Source of the DNA: a phage
Length of the DNA: 64,000 bases
Reading direction: 5' to 3' (one strand)
Assembly (NCBI GenBank): GCA_018509705.1
Contig: GCA_018509705.1_3630.1
How positions within the stretch are numbered: the stretch's first letter is position 1; each line of letters starts with the position of its first letter. Shown piece by piece: positions 7,982 through 49,233 of the stretch. The notes beneath the pieces were generated by a model. It saw only the letters and a list, made by a program, of their open reading frames with translations, did not search any database and was not told the DNA's origin. Made by a program: the position numbers and the translations under genes.

Positions 7982-8743
7982 ATGCGACGACTGATTGTTA
8001 TCTCCGGTGCTGGTTTGAGTGCTGAATCTGGTATTCCCACTTTCCGATCTGGTAGCACTGCAATGTGGGAGAATTTCAGCATCGATGAGGTGTGCAACAT
8101 CCACACCTTTGCCAAGAACTACTATAAGGTGCATGACTTTTACAATGCACGTCGTGTAGCTTTAGGCAGTGTTGAGCCTAACCTTGCACATCTTCGGATC
8201 GCTGAGTGGTATTCCCGCTGGTCTGGTCGTGTGATCAACCTTACCACCAATGTAGATGATTTGCTGGAGCGTGCTGGTGTAAAACATGAAGATATTTTAC
8301 ATGTCCACGGGTATTTGCCAGAAATAGTCTATGAGGACGATGAAGGAAGTGACGTCATTAAGGACATTGGATACTCTGAGGTAGACGCAGGAAAGTATAC
8401 CTGGGTTAAGCCTAATGTGGTGTTCTTCGGAGAAGTAGCTCCGAAGTATACAGACATGTATGACCTGTTGACTTCTCTTACGAGCAATGATATGGTTATC
8501 CTTGTAGGGTGCTCCAACACAGTTATCAATTTTAACTGGGAGCTATTCCCTGCCTGCAATAAGGGAACCAAACTACTGATCGTTAATAAATACGACTCAC
8601 AGCATCTAGAGGAGAATGGCATTTCACGTAGTGATATTTACCAGTATGAGGATCGCGGCATCCCAGTTTGGTTTAACGGTGCGGTTGATGCCTTCTCTGA
8701 TAAAACATTCATTGAGACTGTAGAAAACTTTATGGAACTTTAA
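7982..8743 (+). CDS. Sir2-family (sirtuin-like) NAD-dependent protein
   Basis: ISGAGLSAESGIPTFR matches sirtuin GAGISxxSGIPxFR; TTNVDDLLERAG and HG motifs follow. Confidence 0.7.
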   Translation: MRRLIVISGAGLSAESGIPTFRSGSTAMWENFSIDEVCNIHTFAKNYYKVHDFYNARRVALGSVEPNLAHLRIAEWYSRWSGRVINLTTNVDDLLERAGVKHEDILHVHGYLPEIVYEDDEGSDVIKDIGYSEVDAGKYTWVKPNVVFFGEVAPKYTDMYDLLTSLTSNDMVILVGCSNTVINFNWELFPACNKGTKLLIVNKYDSQHLEENGISRSDIYQYEDRGIPVWFNGAVDAFSDKTFIETVENFMEL

Positions 8744-33097: not shown

Positions 33098-34147
33098 ATG
33101 AATTTAACATATCGCAGCACCATGGTACACGGCATGAAAGAAAAACAGAACGGTTTCGAACCTATGAGTAATAAAATGTTCGGTATGCCGGGTGGTATTA
33201 TGGAAACATACAGCTACCCAACACCAGTTGTTGACCACGTTCTTTATATCGACGATTTGGAAGACTTACAAGATCATATGTCTCGTCTGCAGACGATCCG
33301 TATGGCTCAGCCGGAAGAAAGCATTCGGGTGATCATCAATAGCCCTGGGGGTTGCGTGCACATTGCAATGGCTTATCTGCAGGCATTCCGCGAGTCTCAG
33401 GCAAGCGTTGTTGCACATGCTGAAGGGATGTGCTGCTCTGCTGGAACAATCTTATGGCTTGGTTGCAAAGAACGTACTGTGGCTCCGGACACAGAATTTA
33501 TGTTCCACTACTATCAAGGTGGCACTTATGGTAACGGTGTGAACATGAATACTCAGGTCAGCTACTGGAAAAAACGTTTTGAACGCCTGATCGAAAAATA
33601 CTACGGTGGGGTGCTGACAGAAGATGAGATCGCATCCATCACAGCTGGCGGTGAAGTGTGGTTAGATGGAGAAGAGCTGGCATCTAGAACTGGTGCTATC
33701 ATTCTGGACGATGAAAACATTCAGCGCATTCAGAATGGACAGAAACCGAAAAAGCTTTTGGCAAAAAGTGATGAAGAAGGTGTGCTAGGCGAAGCAGGCC
33801 TGCCAGAGATTCACCAATGCACATCTCTGGACGAGCTGGTTCATGCTGTTGAGTCTGCAAAAGCAAATGGTATGAAAGATGATGTTCACACTGTGTTCCT
33901 GAATCTGCAGATGGAAAGTGGCGAGACCGTCCGGATCGCCCTGGGTGAAATTACTTCAGAAGATCTGCAGCGATTCTCTGTCGTCGAACTTCAGGATATT
34001 CTGTCTCAATTGAAGACTACTCTGAACGGCGGTGAAGAGGTTAAGGTGAAAGACAAGACCCGCAAGCGTCTGATGGACAATATCATTAAAACAGCAAAAG
34101 AGCTCAATGAAAAAATCCTGGGTGCAGGAATTGTCGAAGAAGCTTAA
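33098..34147 (+). CDS. ClpP-fold serine peptidase with long acidic helical C-terminal extension
   Basis: INSPGG, catalytic-Ser context GMCCSAGT, FMFHYYQGG. Confidence 0.5.
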   Translation: MNLTYRSTMVHGMKEKQNGFEPMSNKMFGMPGGIMETYSYPTPVVDHVLYIDDLEDLQDHMSRLQTIRMAQPEESIRVIINSPGGCVHIAMAYLQAFRESQASVVAHAEGMCCSAGTILWLGCKERTVAPDTEFMFHYYQGGTYGNGVNMNTQVSYWKKRFERLIEKYYGGVLTEDEIASITAGGEVWLDGEELASRTGAIILDDENIQRIQNGQKPKKLLAKSDEEGVLGEAGLPEIHQCTSLDELVHAVESAKANGMKDDVHTVFLNLQMESGETVRIALGEITSEDLQRFSVVELQDILSQLKTTLNGGEEVKVKDKTRKRLMDNIIKTAKELNEKILGAGIVEEA

Positions 34148-35050: not shown

Positions 35051-35290
35051 ATGTACAAGTCATTTTCAATCTACTCAAGACAGGCGAAACACTACACAGA
35101 GATCCTGATCACTCAGAAAAAATCTGTGGAAGGTGAGTGGGAATATCACCATAAAATGTTGCGTCCAGACTGGGTTTTTGATAGACTTATTGCTATGATC
35201 CCTCTCGGAGAAGTATACCCTCTGACAGCCCATCGCGATGCTTGGGATTTAATTGATTACATAGATTCATTTAAGGAGCCTAGATTATGA
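35051..35290 (+). CDS. hypothetical protein
   Basis: GAGGGGGG RBS then ATG 35051. Confidence 0.4.
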   Translation: MYKSFSIYSRQAKHYTEILITQKKSVEGEWEYHHKMLRPDWVFDRLIAMIPLGEVYPLTAHRDAWDLIDYIDSFKEPRL

Positions 35291-35688
35291 AGATTGAGAT
35301 TACTAAAGAAGGTAAGAAAGTGTCCGGCAACTATGCAACAGTAATTCGGGATTTAATGTTTGAAGCCACCAAGATCGGTACATCTAAAGTTGGTCAAACT
35401 GTTAGTGTGCAAAGTAATATCGCCACAGGAGAGAAGGTATTCATTGTGGTCAAAGGGCAGGATCCTGTGGAAGGAACAGTGGGCCGAGGAGGTTACCTGT
35501 GCATTTCTGAAGAGCCTCGTATGCTAGTGGCTGACTCCGCTACTATAGGTGGGAAACGTGTGTGCGAGGCGGATGAGGTAATGATTATCCAGCCTGTTGA
35601 CCCAGATGATCCAGCAACTTGGATGGTAGGAAATGAAATCTTCTCTTTAGAAGAGTTATCCTTCCCAGCCCCGCGCTCTGTTCAGTAA
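35287..35688 (+). CDS. small acidic protein, family-A paralogue
   Basis: MKIEIT... start, acidic tail; resembles other family-A members. Confidence 0.45.
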   Translation: MKIEITKEGKKVSGNYATVIRDLMFEATKIGTSKVGQTVSVQSNIATGEKVFIVVKGQDPVEGTVGRGGYLCISEEPRMLVADSATIGGKRVCEADEVMIIQPVDPDDPATWMVGNEIFSLEELSFPAPRSVQ

Positions 35689-35727
35689 TAATTTATCTTA
35701 CCAGGGACGGTAGAAGCAGGAGGTAGC

Positions 35728-35961
35728 ATGAAAGTTAAATTTCTTACAGATTTAGGGTACCCTTCCTTGGTTGACTGTGTTGGTAAAATTGTGGAAGCAA
35801 AACGGCTATCTGCAAACGAGAATGTTGTCCTGGTTAAAGGGAAGGATTTACTAGCTGCAGGTGCAGAGTCTGGCAGGATCTCTCCTGATTATATGTATTA
35901 CCTATCTTTAAGTAATCTGCCAGAGCGAGGCGGTAAAGGCCTTGAAGTTGTGGAGGAGTGA
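35728..35961 (+). CDS. small acidic protein, family-A paralogue
   Basis: MKVKFLTD...KGKDLLAAGAESG; close to 39392 and 39609 members. Confidence 0.5.
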   Translation: MKVKFLTDLGYPSLVDCVGKIVEAKRLSANENVVLVKGKDLLAAGAESGRISPDYMYYLSLSNLPERGGKGLEVVEE

Positions 35962-36491
35962 CAGGTATGCTTCTGATTAACTGGGAAGACCTCTATGGGG
36001 ACAAAGACCCTGTTGCGTTTGTTGATCGTAGGTGGAGATACACTGAAGAACAACTGGCGGCAAAAAATTTAACTGCAAAACGCAGAAAGATCATCCAGTG
36101 CAAGTACAAATACGCACAGTTTGCTGCAAAAGTGTCTCCACAAATCGAGAGCTTTGTGCTTAAATTGTATGACGAGTACCTCAAATTCAAATTGGATTTT
36201 GTACAGGTGTACCGTGCACAGGTACGACCAGATACCAACATATGTAGATGGAAGGTTGTTTGTGACGGTAAAGATTTGCCGCTCAGCTTGACAATTGAGT
36301 GGCGTTATGGGTATCATGAGTGTGGTCTGTATGATATTTGGGATGTCATTGTAGATCCTGCTAAGCATCTGAACACAGAGGAGCTGGAATATATCAATAA
36401 GGTTATTCTCGATATGTTTTTCAGCTACACCCATGAAAACTCTGAGAAAGAACGGGATAATTTTCTTGACACCCTCAGCTGCCATTTGTAG
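35958..36491 (+). CDS. hypothetical protein (177 aa)
   Basis: ORF track. Confidence 0.45.
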   Translation: MTGMLLINWEDLYGDKDPVAFVDRRWRYTEEQLAAKNLTAKRRKIIQCKYKYAQFAAKVSPQIESFVLKLYDEYLKFKLDFVQVYRAQVRPDTNICRWKVVCDGKDLPLSLTIEWRYGYHECGLYDIWDVIVDPAKHLNTEELEYINKVILDMFFSYTHENSEKERDNFLDTLSCHL

Positions 36492-36521
36492 TATACAATT
36501 TAACCTACAAAGGGAGGACCA

Positions 36522-36758
36522 ATGAGTATAAATGTTGTGCTAATAGGTTACCTGGTAATGTCCGTTATAACAGCGGTATTCTTGACAGGTGTATGCATCG
36601 TGTCCAGACGAAGGGTGAAGTTTGATGATTTTATCACCATCATCACTGCTGCACCTTTTTGGCCTGTTGTTATCTTCATCGTGATAATGTGCCTGGTTGA
36701 TTACTACAAGAATATCCGTAAGGAGAAAAAGGAGGGTAGGGATGGAGACCGCACCTAA
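36522..36758 (+). CDS. small membrane protein (two TM helices)
   Basis: Hydrophobic segments VLIGYLVMSVITAVFLTGVCIV and AAPFWPVVIFIVIMCLV. Confidence 0.45.
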   Translation: MSINVVLIGYLVMSVITAVFLTGVCIVSRRRVKFDDFITIITAAPFWPVVIFIVIMCLVDYYKNIRKEKKEGRDGDRT

Positions 36759-36894
36759 AACTGTTTATACTGTTCTTAAAGAGATTGCGTTCTACGCAGA
36801 TCTTAGCCAGGCACCTTTATGGGAAAAGAGCATGTATTTAAAATGGTGCGTTAATTTAGGGAGGCCTTCCAGTGTTTCAAGCCATGTTTATTGA
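36742..36894 (+). CDS. hypothetical small protein
   Basis: ATG inside track ORF 36697-36894. Confidence 0.3.
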   Translation: METAPKTVYTVLKEIAFYADLSQAPLWEKSMYLKWCVNLGRPSSVSSHVY

Positions 36895-36977
36895 GATGCT
36901 ATCTGGGGTATTGTTACTGGTAGCCATCTTAGGTGGTGCAGTTCTGATGTATAACTATCTTGAAAAAGGAGACAGCA

Positions 36978-37163
36978 ATGGTAAAAAATAAATCTTTAGA
37001 GCAGGCTGAAAACCTTCTCCACGAGCTGGTAAAGGAGTGGAAAGTTGAATACTCAGATTTTAATGCACGAGAGGGTGAAGATTATTGGCCTACTGAGCGC
37101 TCCGAGGGTGAATGGTATCAAGATTTTATAGAGTGGTTATATCAGACGTGCGATGAGGGGTGA
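36978..37163 (+). CDS. hypothetical small acidic protein
   Basis: AAGGAGA RBS then ATG 36978. Confidence 0.4.
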   Translation: MVKNKSLEQAENLLHELVKEWKVEYSDFNAREGEDYWPTERSEGEWYQDFIEWLYQTCDEG

Positions 37164-37633
37164 CGATGTTTGTTAAATATGTAAAAACGTGCCTCAACAG
37201 CCTTGGCAGAGAGCATTGGTACACCTTGCTTGAAAAAGGAGAAATTTTAACAAAATCTGGAAAGATAACTTTGATACCTCTTGATAGTAAAGGTAAAGAC
37301 CCGTCACGACTTGTTATAGATGATTACGTTACAGGTGTGACGTTCGAGGTCTCTGTGGAGAGGTTAATACGCAGAGCTGGCGGCCCTTATGACCGAAGAG
37401 AGTATGTTTTCGATTCCGTTACAGAGATGGGGGAGCATCCGTCTTTAATGTTCAGGATGGTAATCAGAGATATGAGGTCATCTATAGATAGGATCGTAAA
37501 GGACATTAAGGAACCTTTTAGAGTAAAAGTTAAGAAGTTTTTCGATTCTAAGATTAACATACTCGCCGTTGCACTAGGTGTAGTTCAACTTCTGTTAATT
37601 TTGCACTATTTTGAACTACTATTTAAGTGGTAG
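37160..37633 (+). CDS. hypothetical protein with C-terminal TM helix
   Basis: ORF track; C-terminus ILAVALGVVQLLLILHYF. Confidence 0.4.
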   Translation: MTMFVKYVKTCLNSLGREHWYTLLEKGEILTKSGKITLIPLDSKGKDPSRLVIDDYVTGVTFEVSVERLIRRAGGPYDRREYVFDSVTEMGEHPSLMFRMVIRDMRSSIDRIVKDIKEPFRVKVKKFFDSKINILAVALGVVQLLLILHYFELLFKW

Positions 37634-37692
37634 TTGAGATATGGCACAAAGGATGTGCCATAGTGAAATAAACTAAGAAAGAGGTAGAGAGA

Positions 37693-38040
37693 ATGCCAAA
37701 GATTAAAACGTTATTACTGTGGGTAGCTGTTTTAGCTTTTATAGGGTACTGGACTTGGGAAACTGAATTAAAAGATATCGGATATACCAGTCTTGAGAGC
37801 AAGGCGTGCATTGGCATAACCGATGCGTTCAGGCAAAATGCTATGGATCACGAATGTGTTGATGCAGATATAGATGAGAAACTGTCTAAGGACAAAGATT
37901 TTTACCATGGGCATGCTTTACTTGATAGTGGTGACACTGTAGAGTTCTGGTCGTGGTTTCGTGAAGATGGAACAATAAAAACAGCAGTAAAGATCTCTAA
38001 CAAAGAGTTAATGCTGTTGCAGCAAAAGGAGGCTCAATGA
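37693..38040 (+). CDS. hypothetical protein with N-terminal TM/signal segment
   Basis: MPKIKTLLLWVAVLAFIGYW. Confidence 0.4.
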   Translation: MPKIKTLLLWVAVLAFIGYWTWETELKDIGYTSLESKACIGITDAFRQNAMDHECVDADIDEKLSKDKDFYHGHALLDSGDTVEFWSWFREDGTIKTAVKISNKELMLLQQKEAQ

Positions 38041-38324
38041 TCTGGATATCCTATGCTGATGGCACCATGCTGTATACTGCAGGTACCAGATATGAAGTTC
38101 AGGAGAACGATAAAAAATTTATCGTAAAAACATTTGACAAGGACGACAACCTTTTGCTAGAATTGACTTCCAAAGTTGGAGAGGTATCCAATATCCAGTT
38201 GGATTGTGGTCATAAAGATAATCCACTCAAAAAACCTGGAGTAGGTAAGGCTTCAGAAGAACGTCTGTCTCGTATTGCAGAAAGCGTTTCTCCCCAAAAA
38301 TCTAAGAAGAGGACTAGAAAATGA
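38037..38324 (+). CDS. hypothetical protein
   Basis: ORF track. Confidence 0.4.
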   Translation: MIWISYADGTMLYTAGTRYEVQENDKKFIVKTFDKDDNLLLELTSKVGEVSNIQLDCGHKDNPLKKPGVGKASEERLSRIAESVSPQKSKKRTRK

Positions 38325-38515
38325 AAAACTTACGTTTTAACACTTATTACTACAACACATTGAATGATTTGTATTATATTGTTCGAAGTAAAAGTCCTGA
38401 AACAGTCCTATTCTGCCGCGAACCTTTCAAAGGGGAGGAAGTAGAGTCTGAGATGAATGTTAGCCAGATCACCTCTTTGTTGCTCTCAGGCGCAATGGAA
38501 GAAGCAATATTCTAA
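38321..38515 (+). CDS. hypothetical small protein
   Basis: ORF track. Confidence 0.35.
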   Translation: MKNLRFNTYYYNTLNDLYYIVRSKSPETVLFCREPFKGEEVESEMNVSQITSLLLSGAMEEAIF

Positions 38516-38533
38516 ACCAGGCGGGAGGGTTTT

Positions 38534-38719
38534 ATGAAGCACTATTGCCTGTCTGGTAGAATGGGTGCAGATTGTGATTGGGTTTTCTTAAAACTTGTCA
38601 GCATTCGAGAGTTCATCCCAGAGGAAGAGCAAGAAAGCGAGCTGATGTCATGGATCAACCACTACGGTAACACTTTTCGGCATGTTAAGGTAGAAGAGTT
38701 GCCAAGCGAGGCTGATTGA
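38534..38719 (+). CDS. hypothetical small protein
   Basis: GGGAGGG RBS. Confidence 0.4.
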   Translation: MKHYCLSGRMGADCDWVFLKLVSIREFIPEEEQESELMSWINHYGNTFRHVKVEELPSEAD

Positions 38720-38721
38720 CT

Positions 38722-38811
38722 ATGATTGCATCAATATTAACGTTTATGGGTGGCGTGGCATTCGGATTCATTGTTTGCCTGTTTATAGTGATTATGTCTA
38801 TGCGAGGCTGA
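38722..38811 (+). CDS. micro-ORF, 29-aa hydrophobic peptide
   Basis: MIASILTFMGGVAFGFIVCLFIVIMSMRG; packed between flanking genes. Confidence 0.3.
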   Translation: MIASILTFMGGVAFGFIVCLFIVIMSMRG

Positions 38812-38814
38812 ATT

Positions 38815-39111
38815 ATGAAACTTTTTGAGTGGTTTAAAAAGTTTAAATATAAAGCTGTAGCCATCGTGCCGTGGTCCATTCAGTGGGTTGATGAAGGTGG
38901 TCTACCGATACCTGGTGACAAAGATACTGGGTACTGGATTATGATGGAGAACGGGTTTGGAAAGCGAAAGTATACGTGCACAAACTCTACTCGATCTGCA
39001 CTTAATAGAGTACCTGGTTACAAACTTATGGTTGTGTGGAAAATGTCAGGCGTGCCTCCAGCCAATGCTCAATTTCTTACTGACAATCCGACCACGGTAG
39101 AGGGAGATTGA
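38815..39111 (+). CDS. hypothetical protein
   Basis: ORF track. Confidence 0.4.
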   Translation: MKLFEWFKKFKYKAVAIVPWSIQWVDEGGLPIPGDKDTGYWIMMENGFGKRKYTCTNSTRSALNRVPGYKLMVVWKMSGVPPANAQFLTDNPTTVEGD

Positions 39112-39395
39112 TAATGAAAAAGATTAACAGTAGTGAAGTAGAGTTTAAACTTGTCGGAAAAGGCACTTACTGGGAAGTTCGTCAAAAGGTATATTTGTTC
39201 GGTCTTATTCCCTACTGGTCTAAATTCTACTGGGGAGCTAACGAGTTGGGAAGATACGCCACCAAATCAATGGCACTTATTGGTATAGCAGAGTACATTG
39301 CAGCCCGAGACAGGGTTGGAACCACTTATTACTACACTGCTGACGATATTCGTAACAGTGTTTACGTCCCACAACCGCCTGAGGGAGACCGTTGA
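39108..39395 (+). CDS. hypothetical protein
   Basis: ORF track. Confidence 0.4.
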   Translation: MIMKKINSSEVEFKLVGKGTYWEVRQKVYLFGLIPYWSKFYWGANELGRYATKSMALIGIAEYIAARDRVGTTYYYTADDIRNSVYVPQPPEGDR

Positions 39396-39619
39396 TGAAA
39401 GTTAAAGTTTTAGATTCAAGCTTCTATATTGGTCAGGAGCCCTTAGTGGGGAAAGTGTTTACCGCTATCCCTAACGAAGATTATCCTGACCTTTTAAAAA
39501 TAAAAGGTGCAGATCTTATTGCCGCTGGTGCATCTCAGGACTGCTTTGACAGTCAGTGGACCTACAACTTTGCCCTTGGTGAGGATGTAGAGATAGTGGA
39601 GGACGATCATGAAGGTTAA
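39392..39619 (+). CDS. small acidic protein, family-A paralogue
   Basis: MKVKVLDSSFYIGQEPLVGKV...GADLIAAGA. Confidence 0.5.
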   Translation: MMKVKVLDSSFYIGQEPLVGKVFTAIPNEDYPDLLKIKGADLIAAGASQDCFDSQWTYNFALGEDVEIVEDDHEG

Positions 39620-39863
39620 AATTCTTGATTCTAACGTCTACTTGGGACAATCCTTCCTGAAGGGAAAGGTCGTTCCTGCGGTATACTTTGAAGGGTTGCC
39701 GTGGGATGATCCTGTGCGGCAACATCACAGTTATGTAGGCCACAACGTGGTGTTTATCTTGGGATCAGACCTGATCGCTGCTGGTGCACCGGAATATTAT
39801 TTCGGGGAAGAGTCCTATTATGCCTTTGGGGCAGGGTCAGATGCAGATATTGTAGAGCTGTGA
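39609..39863 (+). CDS. small acidic protein, family-A paralogue
   Basis: MKVKILDSNVYLGQSFLKGKV...GSDLIAAGA. Confidence 0.5.
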   Translation: MKVKILDSNVYLGQSFLKGKVVPAVYFEGLPWDDPVRQHHSYVGHNVVFILGSDLIAAGAPEYYFGEESYYAFGAGSDADIVEL

Positions 39864-40274
39864 TTGGTAACCGTTGTGAAAAATAAACTGTTCAAAGTTA
39901 CAATGAAAATTCGCGGAGCTTGGAGCGTAAAGCAAGGGCGTATCCCAGAATTTGAGAAAGACTTCTACGTAGTCTCCACCTCGGAGGAGGCTGCATGCTG
40001 GCAGGCTGGCTATGCCTATGCAAGAACCTGGTACGAAGGATACCAGACCGGGGGATATGACGGAGAAATTATCAGCAAAGGTGTGGAAGAAATTAATGTG
40101 TTGACAAGTGAAAAAGTTTTTGTTATAGTGCACCCAGATTCTAGAGTGAAGCATTACTGGAATGCCAGAACAAAAACTTGGACACCGTTTGCAGATTCTG
40201 CTACACCACTTTTAAACCAGAAAGCTCTTGACTCTGTCCCGAGCTATGGGGTTGTTGAAGAAAAGCTAAACTGA
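39864..40274 (+). CDS. hypothetical protein, family-B paralogue
   Basis: Shares ...HYWNARTKTWTP... with 42081-42476; non-ATG start likely. Confidence 0.45.
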   Translation: MVTVVKNKLFKVTMKIRGAWSVKQGRIPEFEKDFYVVSTSEEAACWQAGYAYARTWYEGYQTGGYDGEIISKGVEEINVLTSEKVFVIVHPDSRVKHYWNARTKTWTPFADSATPLLNQKALDSVPSYGVVEEKLN

Positions 40275-40291
40275 AACGGTGAGGTACTAAC

Positions 40292-40582
40292 ATGATGGAT
40301 TTAGTTCTAGACACTGATAACACCGGAGCGTTTAAAAAGGATGGTGTAACAAGCGTTGACCAATCATTCCCTGCCAAGATTGACTCAAAATGGACCTACA
40401 AGTTTGATGGAGAGATCTTCGCAAATGATGAGAAGGTTGTAGATGCTGCAGCCATTTTGAACGCTCTAGGGTACGACCCTGTGAATTCTTTGATCAAGGA
40501 TCCTGTTGAGTTTGCAGAGTATGTTCGAAAAATGGCAGATCTTGCTGTGGATATTTTAAAAACTATCGACAACAATCTGTAA
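40292..40582 (+). CDS. hypothetical small acidic protein
   Basis: ORF track. Confidence 0.4.
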   Translation: MMDLVLDTDNTGAFKKDGVTSVDQSFPAKIDSKWTYKFDGEIFANDEKVVDAAAILNALGYDPVNSLIKDPVEFAEYVRKMADLAVDILKTIDNNL

Positions 40583-40588
40583 AAACTG

Positions 40589-40617
40589 TTGACACAACGC
40601 TTCAGATTTAGTATCAT
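40589..40617 (+). promoter_or_regulatory. sigma70-like promoter followed by leader hairpin 40626-40646
   Basis: TTGACA-17nt-TATCAT then AGAGGG-TTTGGTT-CCCTCT hairpin. Confidence 0.5.
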
Positions 40618-40664
40618 TGTTTTCAAAGAGGGTTTGGTTCCCTCTTCTTTAAAAGGAACACGTT

Positions 40665-40982
40665 ATGCAAATTGAAATCACTGGCAACGTAGAAATCACT
40701 GAAGGTATGGTGTCTTTCATTTCCCACAAAATGTCTAAGCTGGAGCGTTTGCATCCCTCTGCCAACTATGCACGTGTGAGTGTAAAAGTTGAAAATGATC
40801 ACCAGGAAGTTATGGCGTTCATTTTTGACAATTCTGGAAAAGAAGTTATTGCCAAAGCTAAAGGCAGTGATGCTTACGAGGCAACTGACCGTATGGTAGA
40901 TGTTGCAGCACGTCAACTGGCTAAATGCGGTGGAAAGAAAGGTAAGGGGAAAGGCAAAGTAAAGATTGACTTTAGAGAATGA
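40665..40982 (+). CDS. ribosome hibernation factor homologue (HPF/RaiA/YfiA fold) with Gly/Lys-rich tail
   Basis: MQIEITGNVEITEGM...KLERL...YEATDRMVDVAARQLAK matches HPF/YfiA pattern. Confidence 0.55.
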   Translation: MQIEITGNVEITEGMVSFISHKMSKLERLHPSANYARVSVKVENDHQEVMAFIFDNSGKEVIAKAKGSDAYEATDRMVDVAARQLAKCGGKKGKGKGKVKIDFRE

Positions 40983-40991
40983 GGTGCTACA

Positions 40992-41093
40992 ATGGGTGTG
41001 ATCAAGAAATTAGTCCCAAATGTAGAGATTGCATGCTTTGAAATTATGTTTGCAATCGCAGTTGTAGTTAATGTGTTAGGTTACGGCTATTAA
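40992..41093 (+). CDS. micro-ORF, 33-aa hydrophobic peptide
   Basis: GAGGTG RBS; MGVIKKLVPNVEIACFEIMFAIAVVVNVLGYGY. Confidence 0.3.
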   Translation: MGVIKKLVPNVEIACFEIMFAIAVVVNVLGYGY

Positions 41094-41119
41094 TATCAAA
41101 TAATTGAGGAGACCTCTAA

Positions 41120-41389
41120 ATGAAAATTAAATTATTCAAAACTGAGCTGGCAGACAAAAACTGTGGACTGGTTGAAGGTATGATTGTCGAAGCACAACCA
41201 GTTGACTATATGAAGGTGGTTCGTGATGCCCTGGGTGAAGGTTTTGATCTGATGGAGCCAGCTCTGCGAGAAGATGTTATCGAGATGGCTAAAAAGCACA
41301 CACCTGAAGGCATGGTGGTGTTTGTTGCACCGGGTAACGGAGAAGAGTTGATTGTAACTCCGGATGTGTATGAGATTGTAGAGGAATAA
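41120..41389 (+). CDS. small acidic protein, family-A-like
   Basis: MKIKLFKTEL..., ends EIVEE. Confidence 0.45.
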   Translation: MKIKLFKTELADKNCGLVEGMIVEAQPVDYMKVVRDALGEGFDLMEPALREDVIEMAKKHTPEGMVVFVAPGNGEELIVTPDVYEIVEE

Positions 41390-41480
41390 TCCTGCTTGGA
41401 TTAGCATACTTCCTCGATAAGGAAGGTTTGTAATTATTTGTGGGAAAGGAATCCCAATCTCTTACCAGAGGTGATACTAT

Positions 41481-41744
41481 ATGATTGTTTATTTTAAAAC
41501 TTCAGGTGGATACCCTGATTCTCAAAGCTTGATCGGAAAAACGTGCACAGCATACTCACCTCTTGATGAGGAGGTAGGCGATATTCTACGAAATATGTAT
41601 CGGATTGATCCTCAAGAAGCTTTTGATCAAAACCTTGTATTTGTCAAGGGCTCAGACATGAAGTCTTTGGGAGCATTCCCTGAAGCAGATGATGATGCCG
41701 TTTATTCGTTCATGACCCCTTTTGAAGCTATGGTTGTTGGGTGA
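41481..41744 (+). CDS. small acidic protein, family-A-like
   Basis: ...LVFVKGSDMKSLGA... Confidence 0.45.
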   Translation: MIVYFKTSGGYPDSQSLIGKTCTAYSPLDEEVGDILRNMYRIDPQEAFDQNLVFVKGSDMKSLGAFPEADDDAVYSFMTPFEAMVVG

Positions 41745-41748
41745 TAAT

Positions 41749-42081
41749 ATGAAAGTACGCTTTATTGGTGAAACAATTCCTGTGCATCTCCGGTCGCCTG
41801 AGGATTCTGCAGATCTTGCATCTCAAAAGGCGAGAGGTTATGATAAGAAAGTAACCTCAACTGATGTAGTGCTTGAGGCTACTAGTCTACCTGACCCTGC
41901 TGCATTCTTTAATCATTATGGGTACTATTTCAGCAATCTGATGAATATCGGTGAGCTTGTGTTTATTAGTGGTGGAGAGATTGTTAGCAAGCTTGGCGGC
42001 GATCCGGATGTCTTTCATGAAACCTGTCCTTTTGCATTTGTGGTAGGTTCAGATGTGGAAGTTATTGAGGAGGTGCGGTAA
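41749..42081 (+). CDS. small acidic protein, family-A-like
   Basis: MKVRFIGE..., ends VIEEVR. Confidence 0.45.
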   Translation: MKVRFIGETIPVHLRSPEDSADLASQKARGYDKKVTSTDVVLEATSLPDPAAFFNHYGYYFSNLMNIGELVFISGGEIVSKLGGDPDVFHETCPFAFVVGSDVEVIEEVR

Positions 42082-42476
42082 TGGTAAGCCTATACCGTGT
42101 TGAGTATAGCTCAGATACTGTATACAACGTAAGAAGCAAAGATCGCAGCGACAGAGTGCAAGAAATGTATGTTCTTGCCGACAGTCCGTTATCTGCAGCG
42201 TTCAAGGCAGGGGCTCTTGCATCTCGTTGGAAATTTGAAGGCGGATCTTTCTATGAAGAAACCCTTGAAGATTCTGTTGTTATTTCTTCTGTAGAGGTTT
42301 CAGATGACTACGAAGGGAAAAAGTTCGTAATGCGGCACCCACACAGCAACATTGCGTACTACTGGGATGTTCTGAACAACGAGTGGACCCCAGATCTTCA
42401 GAAGGCTACTGTGCTAACACCGTTTTTGGCAGATAAGTTCCCACCAGAAGGTAATTTATCCGCACTGTTTCAGTAA
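42081..42476 (+). CDS. hypothetical protein, family-B paralogue
   Basis: Shares ...YYWDVLNNEWTP... with 39864-40274. Confidence 0.45.
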   Translation: MVSLYRVEYSSDTVYNVRSKDRSDRVQEMYVLADSPLSAAFKAGALASRWKFEGGSFYEETLEDSVVISSVEVSDDYEGKKFVMRHPHSNIAYYWDVLNNEWTPDLQKATVLTPFLADKFPPEGNLSALFQ

Positions 42477-42494
42477 TTTTCTTGCACACAGGTG

Positions 42495-42525
42495 TTGACA
42501 ACGCCAACCCTGTGTGAAATAATAC
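42495..42525 (+). promoter_or_regulatory. sigma70-like promoter with -35 embedded in inverted repeat
   Basis: CACACAGG-tgTTGACAacgccaac-CCTGTGTG then AATAAT. Confidence 0.45.
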
Positions 42526-42555
42526 CTTCATCTTAACAAGACAGGAGACCGATTG

Positions 42556-42813
42556 ATGAAGATTAAATTGAAAAACCTTGAAACGGCAGAGATTCAGGAC
42601 GGTGTTGATTTCCGTTCTAAAGATGGTGACATCTTAGAGGTAAATATTCCAACCTACGAGCTGATTAAAGGTTTTGGCAACGTTCAGGAAGAGGATATTA
42701 CAGAAATTCTTATGATGTTGATTCTTGACGGAACTGTGTTTGTAGGTGAAGGTGAGAACGCTATTGCAATCCCAGGCCATTTTTATGAAGTAGTTGACGA
42801 AGAGGTGCTGTAA
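42556..42813 (+). CDS. small acidic protein, family-A-like
   Basis: MKIKLKNL..., ends EVVDEEVL. Confidence 0.45.
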   Translation: MKIKLKNLETAEIQDGVDFRSKDGDILEVNIPTYELIKGFGNVQEEDITEILMMLILDGTVFVGEGENAIAIPGHFYEVVDEEVL

Positions 42814-43164
42814 ATGAAAGTAGAAATTACTGGTTTTGATGTTAATGTGGTTCCGGAAGATATTTTAGCTAAACTTCCGGAAGGTTTTGGTAACGGTGTT
42901 GTGGTGGATGCTGTTCCTCCTACTAAAGACATTCTGCTGCAGTATGGTGTAGCAGAGGAAGATGTCGATAAAGTTCTTACAATGATGGCAATCAATCGTG
43001 TTGTCGTTGTTAAAGGTCTCGATAATTTTGAGAGTGATCCACTGATTATTCGTGGAGATGACTACAAAATCATCGATAATGAAGGCCAAGAGTTCTATGA
43101 GCCTTGTGCAGAAGATATTCTTAACTTATTACTGGAAGCAGGCACCGAAGAGGAGGACGAATAA
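42814..43164 (+). CDS. small acidic protein, family-A-like
   Basis: MKVEITGFD..., tail TEEEDE. Confidence 0.45.
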   Translation: MKVEITGFDVNVVPEDILAKLPEGFGNGVVVDAVPPTKDILLQYGVAEEDVDKVLTMMAINRVVVVKGLDNFESDPLIIRGDDYKIIDNEGQEFYEPCAEDILNLLLEAGTEEEDE

Positions 43165-43493
43165 TGAAGATTGACCCGTTACTGAAGGCTCGTGCAGAAA
43201 AAGCGTACACCATTAAGTTGACCAACTTGGTTCCTACTTGTCATCCGGATGTAGGTTGGCCCGAAGGTTTGGTGGAGGGAACTGTAACAGCTGCATACCT
43301 TCCTAACATCAAATACCTCATGGAAATCTTGGAGCTGGATGAGGAAACGGCAGAAGAGTTCCAGTTGGACATGAAACAAAGTGGGACTCTGGTTATTCAC
43401 GGGTGGTACAATACTAAAGATGCAGAAGACCCTCTGGTAACTTCTAATCTGGCATATGAAATCTTAGGGCCTTTGAACCTGGAGGAAGACTAA
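43164..43493 (+). CDS. small acidic protein, family-A-like
   Basis: MKIDPLLK..., tail LNLEED. Confidence 0.4.
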   Translation: MKIDPLLKARAEKAYTIKLTNLVPTCHPDVGWPEGLVEGTVTAAYLPNIKYLMEILELDEETAEEFQLDMKQSGTLVIHGWYNTKDAEDPLVTSNLAYEILGPLNLEED

Positions 43494-43780
43494 TGAAAGA
43501 TCTGGTTAAGATTAAGATTAAAGATACCAATGGAGAACTCAGCCATTTTGGAATTAATGATGGTGACGAGCTGATCGCACACCTGCCTACCAAGGAGGTT
43601 GTAAGCAAAGCAGTTGCCGGAGAAGAAGCTGCAATGCAGGCTGCAGGTGTGGATGAAAACTATGTAGCTATGTGCATGTGCCGAGATCAGGTTGTTCTGT
43701 ATAAAGCGTATCGACCAAACGGAGCCACGGAGTGGCTTGTATTCCGACCCGAAGGATATGAAATCTTAGAGGCACTATGA
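43493..43780 (+). CDS. small protein, family-A-like
   Basis: MKDLVKIKIKD... Confidence 0.4.
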   Translation: MKDLVKIKIKDTNGELSHFGINDGDELIAHLPTKEVVSKAVAGEEAAMQAAGVDENYVAMCMCRDQVVLYKAYRPNGATEWLVFRPEGYEILEAL

Positions 43781-43869
43781 TAAATCTTGCCAAGGTTGCA
43801 ACGGCACTGTTAATTATTTGCTGGTCAGTAACCTTAACACTGTGTCTTGTATTTCAGTGAGGTGCTTGT

Positions 43870-44133
43870 ATGAACATCCTGATGTGGGTTATAGCAGTGG
43901 CGTTTGTTGCATGTTTTTGCTGCTGGGTTGCGGTGAGGATTTCTGTAGCTACCCTTCGGAAGTTGGGGTTCTCAGAATGGGATATTAATATCCTTTCTTT
44001 TCGCAATGAAACAATCTCAGCCGCCCTGCTTTGTAAGAAATTTAAGTGGGAACCTTGTGAGGTCATGAGCTATCTAAGAACAGGCGATATCCCTGAAAGA
44101 TTTAAAAAAGTTCTTGACGGCAAGGATAAATGA
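43870..44133 (+). CDS. small membrane protein
   Basis: N-terminal TM MNILMWVIAVAFVACFCCWVAV. Confidence 0.4.
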   Translation: MNILMWVIAVAFVACFCCWVAVRISVATLRKLGFSEWDINILSFRNETISAALLCKKFKWEPCEVMSYLRTGDIPERFKKVLDGKDK

Positions 44134-44289
44134 CAGTATAGTGACTAACAAGAGGTGAGGGGTGACTGATTTTACTGAAGCTTTAATGACGGCCTTGTCT
44201 GTTTTAGCGCTATCGGTGTGTTTTGGGGCGTTATTCACATCTCTGGTTAAAGTTTTACATACAGTATTATTACCCAAGGAGCGCAGTAA

Positions 44290-44540
44290 TGACGAAGATT
44301 GACTTGAATGCTGGTGATCATGTTGTTGTCAAATGCGTTGGAGATTATCTTGGATTCACAATCGGCAATACTTACGAGGCGGTAGTGGCGAAGGTTTATC
44401 ATGATAAAGTCCTCAGTCTTGTATTTGACTGTGATGATGACGGAGATGACCGTTACGTCTGTGAGGTGCTGGCTCGTGACGATAGTGAAGACCAGAAATT
44501 CCTGGTTATTGAACTGAACGGTATTTTTGTAGAACGTTAA
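44290..44540 (+). CDS. hypothetical small acidic protein
   Basis: AAGGAG RBS then ATG 44290. Confidence 0.4.
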
Positions 44541-44568
44541 TTTAAAACAACATAAGGAGACTCTTACT

Positions 44569-44874
44569 ATGGCTAAATCTAAAGTTGAACTGTTCACCTC
44601 TCTTCCTTCTGACACTGCAGAACGTGATCGCCTTCGCAAAACAATTGAAGAACTGGTGGAACTCCAGCTTCAGATTAAAGATTTGAAAGATGCCATCAAG
44701 GATATCATTCTTGTTGAGAAGCAGGATCATCTGTATTCTCCTAAATTCATCAAATCTCTGGTGGCTACCGAGTTCGATATTCGCTATGAGGCTGAAAAAC
44801 GTCGCGCTAAAATCGAAGAAGAGGTTGAGCACATGTCTGAGGCAGACATTCTGTTCAAACGCTCTGTAGAATAA
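44569..44874 (+). CDS. hypothetical coiled-coil protein
   Basis: AAGGAGA RBS; charged heptad-like sequence. Confidence 0.45.
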   Translation: MAKSKVELFTSLPSDTAERDRLRKTIEELVELQLQIKDLKDAIKDIILVEKQDHLYSPKFIKSLVATEFDIRYEAEKRRAKIEEEVEHMSEADILFKRSVE

Positions 44875-44880
44875 TGACAA

Positions 44881-44907
44881 AGAGGGGGGCTTGGGCCCCT
44901 CTTTTTA
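44881..44907 (+). terminator. Rho-independent terminator
   Basis: GAGGGGGGC-TTG-GGCCCCTCT then TTTTT. Confidence 0.65.
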
Positions 44908-44929
44908 CTATCTATGAAGGAGATTTGAG

Positions 44930-45256
44930 ATGGGTATACCGATTACTGTAAAAGAGCTAAATGAACGTGATGCAGGTGGTCTATGGCCTGCACGAAAAAT
45001 CCGCTGCGTCTATATGAAAGAGAATCTTGAACATCTTGATCAACAGATAAAGGTCGGCGATATTTTCGAGGTCTTCTATTCCAATCGGCGCAACTGGGAA
45101 ACCATTCAGCCTTCTGGTTTTGTTCTTGCCAAACTTGACACTGGAGAAGTGATTATCCCTGGGTTGGATATTGTCTTCGAAATTATCCAGGAGTGGGATC
45201 CGGATAAGATTAGATACGAAGAATTATTCGGTAAAGGTATTATCAAACCTGTGTGA
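44930..45256 (+). CDS. hypothetical protein
   Basis: ORF track; GAAGGAG RBS. Confidence 0.45.
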   Translation: MGIPITVKELNERDAGGLWPARKIRCVYMKENLEHLDQQIKVGDIFEVFYSNRRNWETIQPSGFVLAKLDTGEVIIPGLDIVFEIIQEWDPDKIRYEELFGKGIIKPV

Positions 45257-45274
45257 GGTGGATTATGTCTACAA

Positions 45275-45564
45275 AGGCGGCTAAATACTCCTATATGCCA
45301 TCAACCTCTGCAGAGGTAGACTTTAGTTTCGATGTGTTTCCACTGTTTGAGGTGGTTCTGGCATACCCAACAATACTATCTACTCCTGAATCACTTGTGC
45401 CTGTTAAGTTGCAGAACGCTATGCATTCTATGCACTACAACAATAAATGTAGGCACAGATGGTGTCAGGACGAGGAGAGAGATTTGGATAGTTTGAGAGA
45501 TTTTGACAGTCACCTTTTGACACCTTTCAGCTACTCCAACCTTGATAAGCCTTCATGGGTATAG
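45275..45564 (+). CDS. hypothetical protein
   Basis: ORF track (start at ATG 45275). Confidence 0.4.
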
Positions 45565-45588
45565 CAAAATATCAAATTTAAGACACCT

Positions 45589-45616
45589 AGGACGCTCTGT
45601 GGCGTCCTTTTCTTTA
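45589..45616 (+). terminator. Rho-independent terminator
   Basis: AGGACGC-TCTGTG-GCGTCCT then TTTCTTT. Confidence 0.65.
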
Positions 45617-45777
45617 TATGGTGCACGATTGCATACCTTGGACAAATAATCTCGTTACAGAGCGTTTAAGGACGGTCTACAAACAAATCTCTCTTTCGAG
45701 CGTAGCGAGAACGCACGTCCGTTTTGACCCAAATCACCATACGCTCGGATTTTAACCAAACCCTCGCGGCGTTTCTG

Positions 45778-45806
45778 TTGACACATTACCGCTCCAGTGA
45801 TAGTAT
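45778..45806 (+). promoter_or_regulatory. sigma70-like promoter
   Basis: TTGACA-17nt-TAGTAT. Confidence 0.45.
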
Positions 45807-45838
45807 CCACACATAGTTTGTAGAATATGGAGTACACA

Positions 45839-45928
45839 ATGAGAACATTGTCCGAAGTTTTAGTGGTGATCCTGATGATTATTACGTCCATAGCGGCTGT
45901 TGCCGGAATACTCACGGGTGGAACATGA
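45839..45928 (+). CDS. micro-ORF, 29-aa hydrophobic peptide
   Basis: TGGAG RBS; MRTLSEVLVVILMIITSIAAVAGILTGGT; stop overlaps next ATG. Confidence 0.3.
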   Translation: MRTLSEVLVVILMIITSIAAVAGILTGGT

Positions 45929-46137
45929 TCAACACACATGCATCTGAAGAGACATCCGAAGGAGTGACCATATGTCCCTTGGCTGATCCAGTGAAAGAGG
46001 AAAACTTCGATTCTGAAGATTCTCCATCTTCGCTCCAGGTAGATCCTGAGGCTGATGATCTAACGTGGGAAGACATCGTAGACATCTGGTTCTCTATTAT
46101 GCCTGAGCACGAAGAGTTCAGGGGTGGTAGACTATGA
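45925..46137 (+). CDS. hypothetical small acidic protein
   Basis: ORF track. Confidence 0.35.
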   Translation: MINTHASEETSEGVTICPLADPVKEENFDSEDSPSSLQVDPEADDLTWEDIVDIWFSIMPEHEEFRGGRL

Positions 46138-46258
46138 AGCACCGAGCCCACACAGGTTCCTCATGCTAAAGCATGGCCTGAAGAGGCAAACGTGCATAAT
46201 TCCAGTGCATTGGAACGTATAAAACCCAGTTCACACTCTCATTTCCAGAGGAGATTTC

Positions 46259-46474
46259 ATGAAGATAGAAATATTTGGTGGAGCTGACAACACTCGTGGC
46301 CTGATTTACCTTGAGTTCGATGAATCATACCTGCCAGAGGTGTTAAATATGGACTCTGTTGCTGATGCTTTGGGAGTAAGTCCTAAAGATCTCTACTCTG
46401 GTGCTGAGATTGATGGTTGGGAGGAGACCATGAACATTGATTTCAGTGAAGTAGGTGATGAACCACTGGACTGA
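46259..46474 (+). CDS. small acidic protein, family-A-like; last plus-strand gene before the non-coding hub
   Basis: MKIEIFGG..., GGAGA RBS. Confidence 0.4.
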   Translation: MKIEIFGGADNTRGLIYLEFDESYLPEVLNMDSVADALGVSPKDLYSGAEIDGWEETMNIDFSEVGDEPLD

Positions 46475-47235
46475 CACACAATTAGCTACCCGGCTAAAGT
46501 GCTGGGAGCACCTATAACACATCTTTCAACTAAATTTCCCACCACCACAATCACTTACCTCCCACACATGACTGTTTGCTTGTTTAGTGAGCAGTCATGC
46601 CTTGACATTCTTGCCTATCCTGATAAAATTAAGTTCTTCTCTTTTCTTTTACCGAGTAATTCGGGTTTTCTGTTCTCTTCGGTTTGAAGGGGGTATGGAG
46701 ATACACCTGAGTGAACAGGGTGAACAACCGAACCATTGGCTATGGCATTAGCATGGCGAAGCGGACGGGTGACGAAAGAGGGGCCGGAGGACACCAGTCA
46801 CTGCCATATGATATATGGGTGATAACCTGAAGAATCTGAATAAGTGTTTAAGTACCAGTCAGAGGAAAAGGTGAATGGTAGCTGAAGGGGAGGGGGGTTT
46901 CTTGTATCTTTAATTTGTATATTATGTATACACTTGTAAACCAATTTCATCTGAATCTGTTTACCACACAAAGTGGATAGAGACAAATATTACCTATTAA
47001 ACTTGAATTATTTATAGAAAATACCACAACACCACTTAAGTCTTTGATTTTACACACAAATCCTGCAGATATTCAACCTCCATATTTAACATACTTGTAA
47101 CATATTCCATACTCTACCTGCCTGATCAATTTCCCCAACTACATCCCCCATATTTTCCCTGTCTGTACTACCCCTGCCCCGCCGGGAGTCCCGTCATATC
47201 TGGCTTTCCAGCAAATATCACACCCACAAATATCA

Positions 47236-47290
47236 TTGCCTGAAGAGGGTTTCATCCCATAATACCTGCCTTGCCTGAAGAGGGTTTCAT
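47236..47290. repeat. 20-bp direct repeat x2 (TTGCCTGAAGAGGGTTTCAT), 15-bp spacer
   Basis: Copies at 47236-47255 and 47271-47290. Confidence 0.7.
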
Positions 47291-47957
47291 ACGCCACGTA
47301 AATTTTTTAATTGACCCCTCCCCGCCGCCGGAAAGGTTGGCTTTTCTCGCACAGACCTGAAGAGTCAGCCAGAAATATCTGAATAGGCCCAATTCTACCC
47401 CGATTTTGACCTGACCTACAGGAGCGCTGCCCTGTCAGGAGCCGTAGCGACTGGAGTGCTGCCAGGCGGACGAAATGGGAATACTTCTCATTCTTATAAC
47501 AATTCTCAAATATCGAGGCAGTGAGGCAAATTAATAGGCCAGGCCGTTCACACAGTGGCACAACATTTGCAACCTATCCTGTGGGGATGAATGAGAATAC
47601 CTATCATTGTGAGAACCATTATCATTACGGGCAATTTAACATAATACCCATTATGCGCACCACTGGCGATACATACAGGGATTGATAACATGGGTTACTG
47701 TTTACGCACATAACAATTATATTTCTTACCATTTGTGTGGGATATAGTTAGCAGCCGATAGATTAGATATTAACCTGCAGACTTCTGACCGTCCAGACGT
47801 CTAAACGCCCACACACCAAGGATTATACATACACTCCTGAATGTAAACAGGGCCGCAAAAATGCTACCATACAAGCTTGTAAATTTTTCATGCAGCACTT
47901 GACAAAGAGGAGAAAAACTTGTCTGACATAATGTGACCTAACTGACACAACATGACA

Positions 47958-48048
47958 CTTTTACACACCTATTAGTTTACACACTGGATTGTTTACATTC
48001 CTGATTGTTCACATGCTAACCATTTACATGATTGACTGTTTACACACC
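47958..48048. repeat. Iteron array: six TTTACA/TTCACA-centred repeats with 15-16 bp periodicity
   Basis: Motif recurs at about 47961, 47977, 47993, 48008, 48024, 48040. Confidence 0.6.
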
Positions 48049-48057
48049 GATAATCAG

Positions 48058-48307
48058 CCATGCCATTCGTTTGCATGACAATAATTATACATGACAATAA
48101 TCGCACTGATTATAATTAGCATGACATAATATAAAAGCAGGGCAACTATTAGCAGATCTATAGTTGCCTTGCTTGTCATGTCATGATTAACTAAATACAA
48201 GGCAACTATGATCTGATTAATAGTTTGCAGACAAACTATCACGGGGGTGATGGTTACTGCTTTTATATTATGTCGCGACTCCGTCGCGCCATGCCATTCG
48301 TTTGCAT
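48058..48307. repeat. Composite element: perfect 19-bp direct repeats flanking a 212-bp AT-rich core full of inverted repeats
   Basis: CCATGCCATTCGTTTGCAT at 48058-48076 and 48289-48307; inner palindromes GGCAACTAT-N11-ATAGTTGCC and ACATAATATAAAAGCAG/CTGCTTTTATATTATGT. Confidence 0.6.
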
Positions 48308-48921
48308 AGTTGCCTTATTGTTACAGATAAAATAATTGTATTGTTAATTATTTCTTATCTTTCTATTAGTCATCTAATGATTTCAGTTAATATAGTAACG
48401 TACAGTAAACATTAGACGACTAAAGATTTCTCTGCTTATGGTAACCTAACGTGACAATTCCAGACTGTTTACGAAAAATGTTGACACCTGGGCCGATTTA
48501 TGTTATGCAGTTTACACGAATAATTATTTTATGCAGGTATTGACTATTCCGTTATTCTATGGTTGGAATAAATGCTTAGCAGGCTATAGAATGGCGAGCG
48601 TACGTAAATTCTGAGATCTGGCGGCTATAGTTATACTCGATTTTTCACGTAGAAAACGCTTTTGTAGTTATGTAAGTGTATGACTTATAAAGATTTTTAG
48701 TTGTTGACAAGCTATTGAAGATATGCATCAGGTTAAATTTTGTGCAAATGCTGCATTATGTGCAATTTTGGAAGGAAAAACGTGTAAAAATGGCCCTGCT
48801 ACCACACAATGAAAAATTATGCAATAGTTATTTTATATGTATGTTTGTACAGTGGGGTTAATTGCTGGCTTGTTGATTATTCCATTTGCCAGGCGGGGCC
48901 ATTTGTGGTAGGAAAAGAGGA

Positions 48922-48950
48922 GACAAAAAGAAAGGGGCTTTAAGCCCCTG
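48922..48950 (-). terminator. Rho-independent terminator closing the minus-strand early block
   Basis: AGGGGCTTTAAGCCCCT hairpin followed by T-run on minus strand. Confidence 0.6.
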
Positions 48951-48968
48951 ACCGTGCACCTTGTTGTA

Positions 48969-49233
48969 TTATTTGTTGCTCATCCAGTTTTCCCAAGCTG
49001 CCTGATAATCTGCCTCACTACGGCGGATCTCTTCTTGCTCTTCAAGGCGGATCTCTTCTTCCAGGTACCCCAAGATGTCAGCCTTTTTGGTCTGGCGTAA
49101 CATCCAATCATCTTTTTTACGAGTGAAGATCTTATAAGCTTTCTCGCAAACCTCTTTTTTGCTACCTTTCTGGACTTCAAGAATTCTGTAGGCCATGTAC
49201 TGAACTAATTTAAGCTGATCCAGACGTTTCATG
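48969..49233 (-). CDS. hypothetical protein
   Basis: AAGAGGA RBS before ATG 49233. Confidence 0.45.

Follow-up and report, generated by a model that had tools for sequence, protein, structure and literature searches.

What do the small genes encode that rV5-like coliphages carry in dense succession behind their genes for a ClpP-like protease and an adenine methyltransferase, and do they form one array of related copies? We addressed this question in a stretch of 64,000 nucleotides (nt) from a phage (GenBank assembly GCA_018509705.1, contig GCA_018509705.1_3630.1; the whole stretch is referred to as the window), which belongs to a Vequintavirus. Over its whole length, the region from 35 to 47 kb of the window shows 97.5-98.1% identity to many Vequintavirus genomes, among them those of HdK5, pangalan and the BASEL phage MaxTheCat/Bas57. 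It is covered to at least 80% in 116 GenBank records, and nearly all of its genes are annotated as "hypothetical protein" in the records of these relatives. A sequence-only reading had described the run from about 35.3 to 46.5 kb as a tandem array of at least 11 divergent small acidic paralogues under host-driven diversifying selection. The run of small plus-strand genes is indeed present in this interval, and it is an ordinary accessory small-gene cluster in a well-sampled phage group. We found that twelve of its genes, located between 35.7 and 43.8 kb, belong to three old paralogue families, A (five genes), C (five genes) and B (two genes), which represent Vequintavirus accessory genes, each maintained individually, and not a fast-turnover locus.

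Three paralogue families between 35.7 and 43.8 kb

The 38 plus-strand genes between 32.6 and 46.5 kb were compared all against all by blastp, and profile searches were performed on 1603 six-frame open reading frames (ORFs) from the window and two outgroup loci; all genes described below are located on the plus strand unless indicated otherwise. The first three members of family A are A1 (35728-35961, 77 amino acids [aa]), A2 (39395-39619, 74 aa from its ATG, given in the ORF list from TTG 39392) and A3 (39609-39863, 84 aa, with extra residues inserted between strands 2 and 3 of the fold predicted below), the latter two overlapping by 11 nt. They were linked by blastp with E values from 1e-14 (A2 and A3, 41% identity) to 9e-7 (A1 and A2, 31% identity), all fall into phrog_5009, and they share the core G-x-D-L-(I/L)-A-A-G-A on which the relationship had been proposed; the motifs quoted by the sequence-only reading are present exactly as written. 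A profile built from A1-A3 matched two further genes and nothing else, namely A4 (41481-41744, 87 aa, in which strands 2 and 3 are separated by an insertion that looks helical; E 7.6e-6, and E 1e-4 against phrog_5009) and A5 (41749-42081, 110 aa from its ATG, listed from TTG 41722, with N-terminal and internal insertions; E 3.4e-4). The family is marked by Y-x-F in strand 4 and by the core G-x-(D/E)-L-(I/L)-x-x-G-A, which follows strand 3; the core is exact in A1-A3 and relaxed in A4 (GSDMKSLGA) and A5 (GGEIVSKLGG). Leave-one-out searches with profile hidden Markov models (HMMs) recovered each of the five members (A1 3e-5, A2 4e-13, A3 1e-13, A4 2.7e-5, A5 8.4e-5), the next match having an E value above 0.2.

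Weaker blastp links involved A4, A5 and three genes of family C (listed ORFs 41481, 41722, 42553, 42814 and 43493). Family C comprises C1 (41120-41389, 89 aa), C2 (42556-42813, 85 aa, listed from 42553), which is the most variable member, C3 (42814-43164, 116 aa), which carries an acidic C-terminal extension, C4 (43164-43493, 109 aa) and C5 (43493-43780, 95 aa), which corresponds to gp148/gp149 of rV5, where it is broken by a frameshift in the reference record. The leave-one-out HMMs recovered C1 (E 1.2e-3), C2 (3e-6), C3 (1.5e-4) and C5 (4e-4), but C4 with an E value of only 0.065; it was nevertheless the top match outside the training set and represents the weakest membership of the family. 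The similarity goes beyond amino acid composition, since Smith-Waterman comparisons against 300 composition-preserving shuffles gave Z values of up to 24 within family A and of 4-8 within family C, and every member was recovered by the leave-one-out HMMs.

Family B consists of B1 (39876-40274, 132 aa when read from GTG 39876, a codon that is ATG in phage Aya; listed from TTG 39864) and B2 (42081-42476, 131 aa, 96-100% conserved across the genus). The two had been proposed as one second family, and this was confirmed by blastp (28% identity over 119 aa, E 2e-8), by their common assignment to phrog_7379 and by the motif H-P-x-S...Y-W...W-T-P, which lies within a seven-sequence alignment with 33 invariant columns. 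The order A-A-B occurs twice, as A2-A3-B1 (39395-40274) and as A4-A5-B2 (41481-42476), so that the duplicated sub-module seen in the sequence is real. In all, twelve genes are related to others of the run; they form three families and not one family of at least 11 members, and two of the genes placed in the array, 35287-35688 (133 aa, phrog_5748) and 46259-46474 (71 aa, acidic, phrog_12108), align with the profiles only over residues 1-7.

These two genes, together with ORFs 40292 and 45925, were also examined as potential family members by iterative searches and hhalign, which gave nothing past the first seven residues ("MKIEI.."), and 35287, 46259 and 40292 did not match the family C profiles. 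ORF 46259-46474 is 86% identical to its counterpart in a deep metagenomic relative (L017, 14173-14388), which is above the values of ClpP (69%) and of the ribosome hibernation factor HPF (56%) and suggests strong constraint or a recent transfer. The peptide DSKWTYKF in the product of the gene after B1 (40292-40582) is encoded by 27 nt with 78% identity to the region encoding strand 4 of A2 (DSQWTYNF, 39546-39572); this gene may contain what is left of an A gene, joined to a helical tail, and it shows the highest ratio of non-synonymous to synonymous substitution rates (dN/dS) of the block in the comparison with rV5 (0.46). In a 657-nt contig of the European Nucleotide Archive, a 98-aa protein (P0093) has a DUF7399 segment at its N-terminus (Pfam E 2.9e-11), followed by the C-terminal half of C4, and is either a recombinant or an assembly chimera.

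The families themselves are already known in that they are catalogued in PHROGs, where the same proteins are matched over their full length (E 1e-32 to 1e-75). Unlike the present analysis, PHROGs splits family A in three (A1-A3 in phrog_5009, A4 and A5 in phrog_13920 and phrog_13661) and family C in five (C1-C5 in phrog_11868, phrog_12359, phrog_12155, phrog_12457 and phrog_12794), while B1 and B2 stand together, and it gives neither functions nor predicted folds. Searches of Pfam, NCBIfam, PADLOC and the sequences of PDB yielded no significant match for A, B or C. For family B, a relationship to ubiquitin-conjugating E2 or UEV-like proteins was considered and rejected, as B2 alone gave E values of 0.4-0.8 and neither the B profile, B1 and a 39%-identical B2 orthologue nor Pfam and PADLOC produced a match.

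Age, conservation and spread of the families

The paralogous copies are only 25-40% identical to each other, from which we conclude that the duplications are old. Each paralogue has a one-to-one orthologue in rV5, FV3, Aya and phiWec189. In the deep relative L017, A1, A2, A3, C1, A4, A5, B2 and C2-C5 follow each other in the same order, again as one-to-one orthologues, with identities of 35-81%; between B2 and C2 there is an additional, inserted PF27050 (Phage_P22_Y8K6) gene (10389-10685 of L017). The duplications are hence older than this split, with each copy retained since, which argues for non-redundant functions and against a rapid birth-and-death turnover. Pairwise comparisons of orthologues from Aya, rV5, FV3 and Bas57 gave dN/dS values of 0.0-0.3 for the A, B and C genes, C2 reaching the highest values (0.17-0.53, with 0.53 at very low dS), and gene-wide positive selection was not seen in these comparisons. 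The A, B and C genes are real and under purifying selection.

Repeated duplication and divergence, as read from the sequence, is thus borne out by the three families and the duplicated A-A-B module, but a host-driven diversifying selection is mostly unsupported, because the copies are old, their orthologues one-to-one and their dN/dS values low, and because signs of turnover are local only. They comprise three cases. Firstly, phiWec189 carries a C2 allele of 52% identity between a B2 gene and a C3 gene that are 100% and 99% identical, respectively. Secondly, A1-A3 of phage Aya are divergent, mosaic alleles with a raised dS, a sign of imported alleles and not of positive selection. Thirdly, two independent metagenomic genomes have a single 70-aa fusion gene in place of A2 and A3; the crossover of this rare A2::A3 chimera lies in the shared GCNGCTGGTGCA that encodes AAGA. 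The locus is therefore not fast-evolving, which corrects a tempting reading of such an arrangement.

Family B was found only in vequintaviruses, and IMG/VR contained only near-identical vequintavirus copies of it. For family A, a profile search of 1.84 billion representative proteins yielded 90 clusters (at 50% identity) with E values of up to 1e-3, mostly standalone proteins of 63-80 aa. Several chains contain two or three A domains (P0096, P0097, P0123, P0138 and P0155), and in some proteins the domain is fused to other modules, for example to DUF3310 in P0150. Homologues occur in cultured phages of Proteus, Klebsiella, Aeromonas, Pseudomonas, Pantoea, Morganella, Citrobacter and Iodobacter, with two copies in Proteus phage RS51pmB, and in lambdoid prophages of E. 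coli, where the gene is located between the Q antiterminator and the holin; this prophage homologue (P0032) is 43% identical to A1 and hence nearer to it than its own paralogues are. An unrelated phage contig (L007) harbors two A genes in tandem, which overlap by 11 nt as A2 and A3 do and are directly followed, with a start/stop overlap, by an HTH_3 regulator gene. The distant A homologues that were examined are all metagenomic singletons. Judged by these sequence matches, family A is a mobile accessory gene that is scattered through phages, often in the form of tandem or fused repeats.

Predicted fold and acidic C-termini

One AlphaFold model was made per family for A and C, and both A2 (predicted local distance difference test, pLDDT, of 93) and C2 (pLDDT 87) were modelled as SH3-like five-stranded barrels. 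The two families consist of small, soluble, acidic single-domain proteins for which a fold as SH3-like five-stranded beta-barrels is predicted. In family A, strand 3 is followed by a conserved capped helix (G-x-D-L-I-x-A-G-A); in family C, two helices are inserted between strands 2 and 3, and the same loop carries the insertions of the long A members A3, A4 and A5. The likeness to known small barrels (SH3, the KOW domains of Spt5/NusG, PsaE and Tudor-like domains) lies in the predicted five-stranded barrel and is not accompanied by a sequence or Pfam relationship, the Pfam models of SH3 and KOW domains having no match at E values of up to 1 for any A or C member. A and C differ from these domains by the extra capped helix and the two-helix insert, respectively, and by being standalone acidic phage proteins, in which the ligand-binding residues of true SH3 or KOW domains were not recognised. 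Among the viral predicted structures of BFVD, the C2 model had a single significant neighbor in Foldseek, the uncharacterized protein A0A6M5CA15 of Vibrio phage Vc1 (E 1.3e-4, TM score 0.73, 30% identity, 86 aa), which comes from an unrelated host; this search gave no link from C to A.

Whether the ten A and C proteins go back to a single ancestor, which would come close to the one array originally described, was assessed by profile-profile alignment. Over the full length, equivalent strands of the two families were aligned in register, with P values of 4.5e-4 (global), 2.5e-3 (local) and 1.3e-2 (a broad A alignment against a shallower C alignment). Reversed controls gave a P of 0.5, the real score was reached by 1-2 of 100 column shuffles, and the signal rose with added sequence diversity. 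The families also share the predicted fold class, a common start M-K-(V/I)-K, the strand 2 pattern G-x-(V/I)-V-x-A, the last strand E-(I/V)-V-E and the position of their inserts at one and the same loop, and their genes are physically interleaved. However, the shuffle tests gave no pairwise signal between A and C, and a broad profile of 74 A sequences found no C member. Small barrels with alternating hydrophobic strands can converge, and the start motif also occurs in unrelated neighbors, HPF included. On balance we lean, by a small measure, towards one superfamily.

The strong acidity that had been noted is present, with isoelectric points (pI) of 4.05-5.4 in the family proteins and net charges of about -10 to -20 for A2, C2 and C3, but it does not discriminate, since about half of the unrelated neighboring genes also encode proteins with a pI below 5. 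The Glu/Asp-rich tails are likewise present. In six of the ten A and C genes (A1, A2, A5, C2, C3 and C4), however, the Shine-Dalgarno sequence of the following gene, which begins at a distance of -11 to +5 nt, lies within the final codons, and its GGAGG or GAGGA is translated, in frame, into Glu, Asp or Gly. The end of A2, HEG-stop, is the start of A3 (ATGAAGGTTAA) read out of frame. The last strand E-(I/V)-V-E represents a family trait, because it is also found in C1, which has no gene close behind, and in distant homologues. The acidic tails are therefore largely a by-product of translational coupling and no evidence of DNA mimicry.

Two sigma-70-type promoters were located within the cluster. 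The first (42495-42523, TTGACA-17-AATAAT with a TG element) precedes C2-C5 and corresponds to the annotated promoter P150 of rV5, and the second (40589-40617), which corresponds to P144, precedes a gene for the ribosome hibernation factor HPF (40665-40982; Pfam Ribosomal_S30AE, E 1.8e-12) in the middle of the array (on the promoters see also the rV5 paper, PMC3606486). The unit that starts at 42495 continues from C2-C5 through three small genes to a predicted transcriptional regulator gene (phrog_639, 44569-44874) and ends at an intrinsic terminator (44884-44900).

Candidate functions and neighboring features

The structural and evolutionary description given above is well supported; binding function, pairing and targets are what we infer beyond it. 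As our best, though tentative, reading, the A and C proteins would be non-enzymatic SH3-like binding modules, whose paralogues are specialised for different protein partners. The genes would be transcribed by the unmodified host RNA polymerase from the sigma-70-type promoters, within a long rightward replication and nucleotide-metabolism unit. Each paralogue would then act on a different partner of host or phage origin, with the variable loops and inserts setting the specificity. The divergence of the phiWec189 C2 allele is consistent with such a role, as it is concentrated in the loop and the helical insert while the terminal strands are conserved. A-type domains may act as pairs or multimers; this would account for the tandem genes and is suggested by their recurrence and by the fused multi-domain forms, and A-A-B may form a complex in which B would not be obligatory for the A2-A3 pair.

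Several points weigh against this interpretation. In L017, B1 is replaced by an unrelated 106-aa gene without a PHROG match (8004-8324), and this replacement, taken together with the collapse of A2 and A3 into one gene, indicates that the A-A-B modules are not strictly obligatory. Heterodimerisation is suggested only by gene order and the fused forms. The conservation of GxDLIxAGA could be purely structural and reflect helix caps, the homology of A and C is suggestive at P values of 4.5e-4 to 1.3e-2, and we found no paper on the A, B or C genes. A bolder version, according to which A and C would be one hitherto undescribed, hetero-oligomeric superfamily of SH3-like inhibitors or adaptors, as mirrored by the tandem genes, the fused repeats and the A-A-B modules, each paralogue neutralising or redirecting a different host factor or a defence other than restriction-modification (RM), and the C2 allele would be a trace of host counter-selection, appears unlikely to us.

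The sequence-only reading had pointed to DNA mimics or inhibitors of host defence, and the proteins would then be anti-restriction or anti-defence inhibitors that diversify in an arms race with host immunity. Several observations are consistent with this: the proteins are small and acidic and stand behind sigma-70 promoters, the C2 allele resembles a cassette between nearly identical flanks, the A1-A3 alleles of Aya are mosaic, and the A-A pair in front of the HTH regulator in L007 as well as the C2-C5 unit ending in the phrog_639 regulator recall acr-aca operons in their layout. Ocr and ArdA share with A and C the small size, the negative charge and the expression from early promoters. On the other hand, A and C have no Pfam or NCBIfam match to the Ocr and ArdA families, and their predicted SH3-like barrel is unlike Ocr, ArdA and other known mimics. 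The low dN/dS and the one-to-one orthologues over a deep divergence speak against an arms race, and the acidity is common to about half of the unrelated neighbors and partly imposed by overlapping ribosome-binding sites. Moreover, according to the BASEL study (PMC8594841), Vequintavirinae show an exceptional susceptibility to RM systems, apparently without effective protection; as a phenotype of the group and not of individual genes, this speaks against Ocr-like anti-restriction mimics. We therefore regard this explanation as rather improbable; an anti-defence role directed against systems other than RM has a similarly low probability.

Even less probable in our view are nucleic-acid-binding regulators of the KOW, Tudor or Sm type that would modulate host transcription or translation; such a role would be in line with the neighboring hibernation factor. 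The least probable explanation, virion or assembly accessory proteins such as chaperones, decoration or scaffolding proteins, could draw on a gene of the block that falls into a virion structural protein family (37166-37633, phrog_7821) and is annotated likewise in rV5, and on the position of the A homologue just upstream of lysis and packaging genes in lambdoid prophages and Proteus phage ZX7, but in the records consulted, including that of rV5, for which a virion proteome is published, no A, B or C gene is annotated as structural, and the genes sit behind sigma-70 promoters in a replication and metabolism unit that lies at a large distance from the morphogenesis genes.

Dense small genes with strong host-type promoters and ribosome-binding sites are also a feature of the host-takeover module of SPO1 and the hyperplastic regions of T4, whose content likewise varies between related genera. 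At the syntenic site, behind ClpP and the methyltransferase, the Seunavirus phages PVP-SE1 and 4MG have a different gene content, and families A, B and C had no match among the genes of these loci. Unlike in the SPO1 and T4 clusters, to which there is no homology, two or three paralogue families dominate the run here and are stably inherited within the genus.

Some further features of the window and its relatives were recorded. The ClpP-like protease (33098-34147) has 349 aa and is far longer than usual ClpP; its C-terminal portion of about 150 residues is kept only in Vequintavirinae, and remoter phages align only over residues ~40-200. A cluster of seven tRNA genes (1913-2725) includes, on the minus strand, an unusual 99-nt tRNA with the four-base anticodon atcc according to ARAGORN (2158-2256), which reached only 35.5 bits with Rfam. 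The interval 46500-49000, about 2.5 kb without a convincing ORF, tRNA or Rfam match, corresponds to the "non-coding" box of the rV5 paper. Two direct repeats of 20 nt without mismatches (47236/47271 and 48057/48288) are present there, as are a perfect inverted repeat of 18 nt (48123/48257) and palindromes of the GCAACTAT type, and the GC skew of the window changes its sign within this interval, which may be an origin or regulatory region. Among the GenBank records, 18 "Campylobacter phage" entries (MG0656xx, host Campylobacter jejuni, 135-143 kb) are ~95% or more identical to rV5-like coliphages, so their attribution to a Campylobacter host looks doubtful.

The rV5-like phages are among the commonest coliphage isolates and are used in typing and biocontrol, and an 8-kb block of their genome has been "hypothetical" in more than 100 genomes. 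New in the present analysis are the union of the genes into three families, the predicted fold, the deep one-to-one conservation, the spread and recurrent multiplicity of family A and the ribosome-binding-site origin of the acidic tails. Twelve hypothetical genes are hereby reduced to three families, two of which have a confidently predicted fold, and family A emerges as a mobile domain found across many phage lineages, often in several copies. The outcome is a short, defined list of candidates for interaction and deletion screens.

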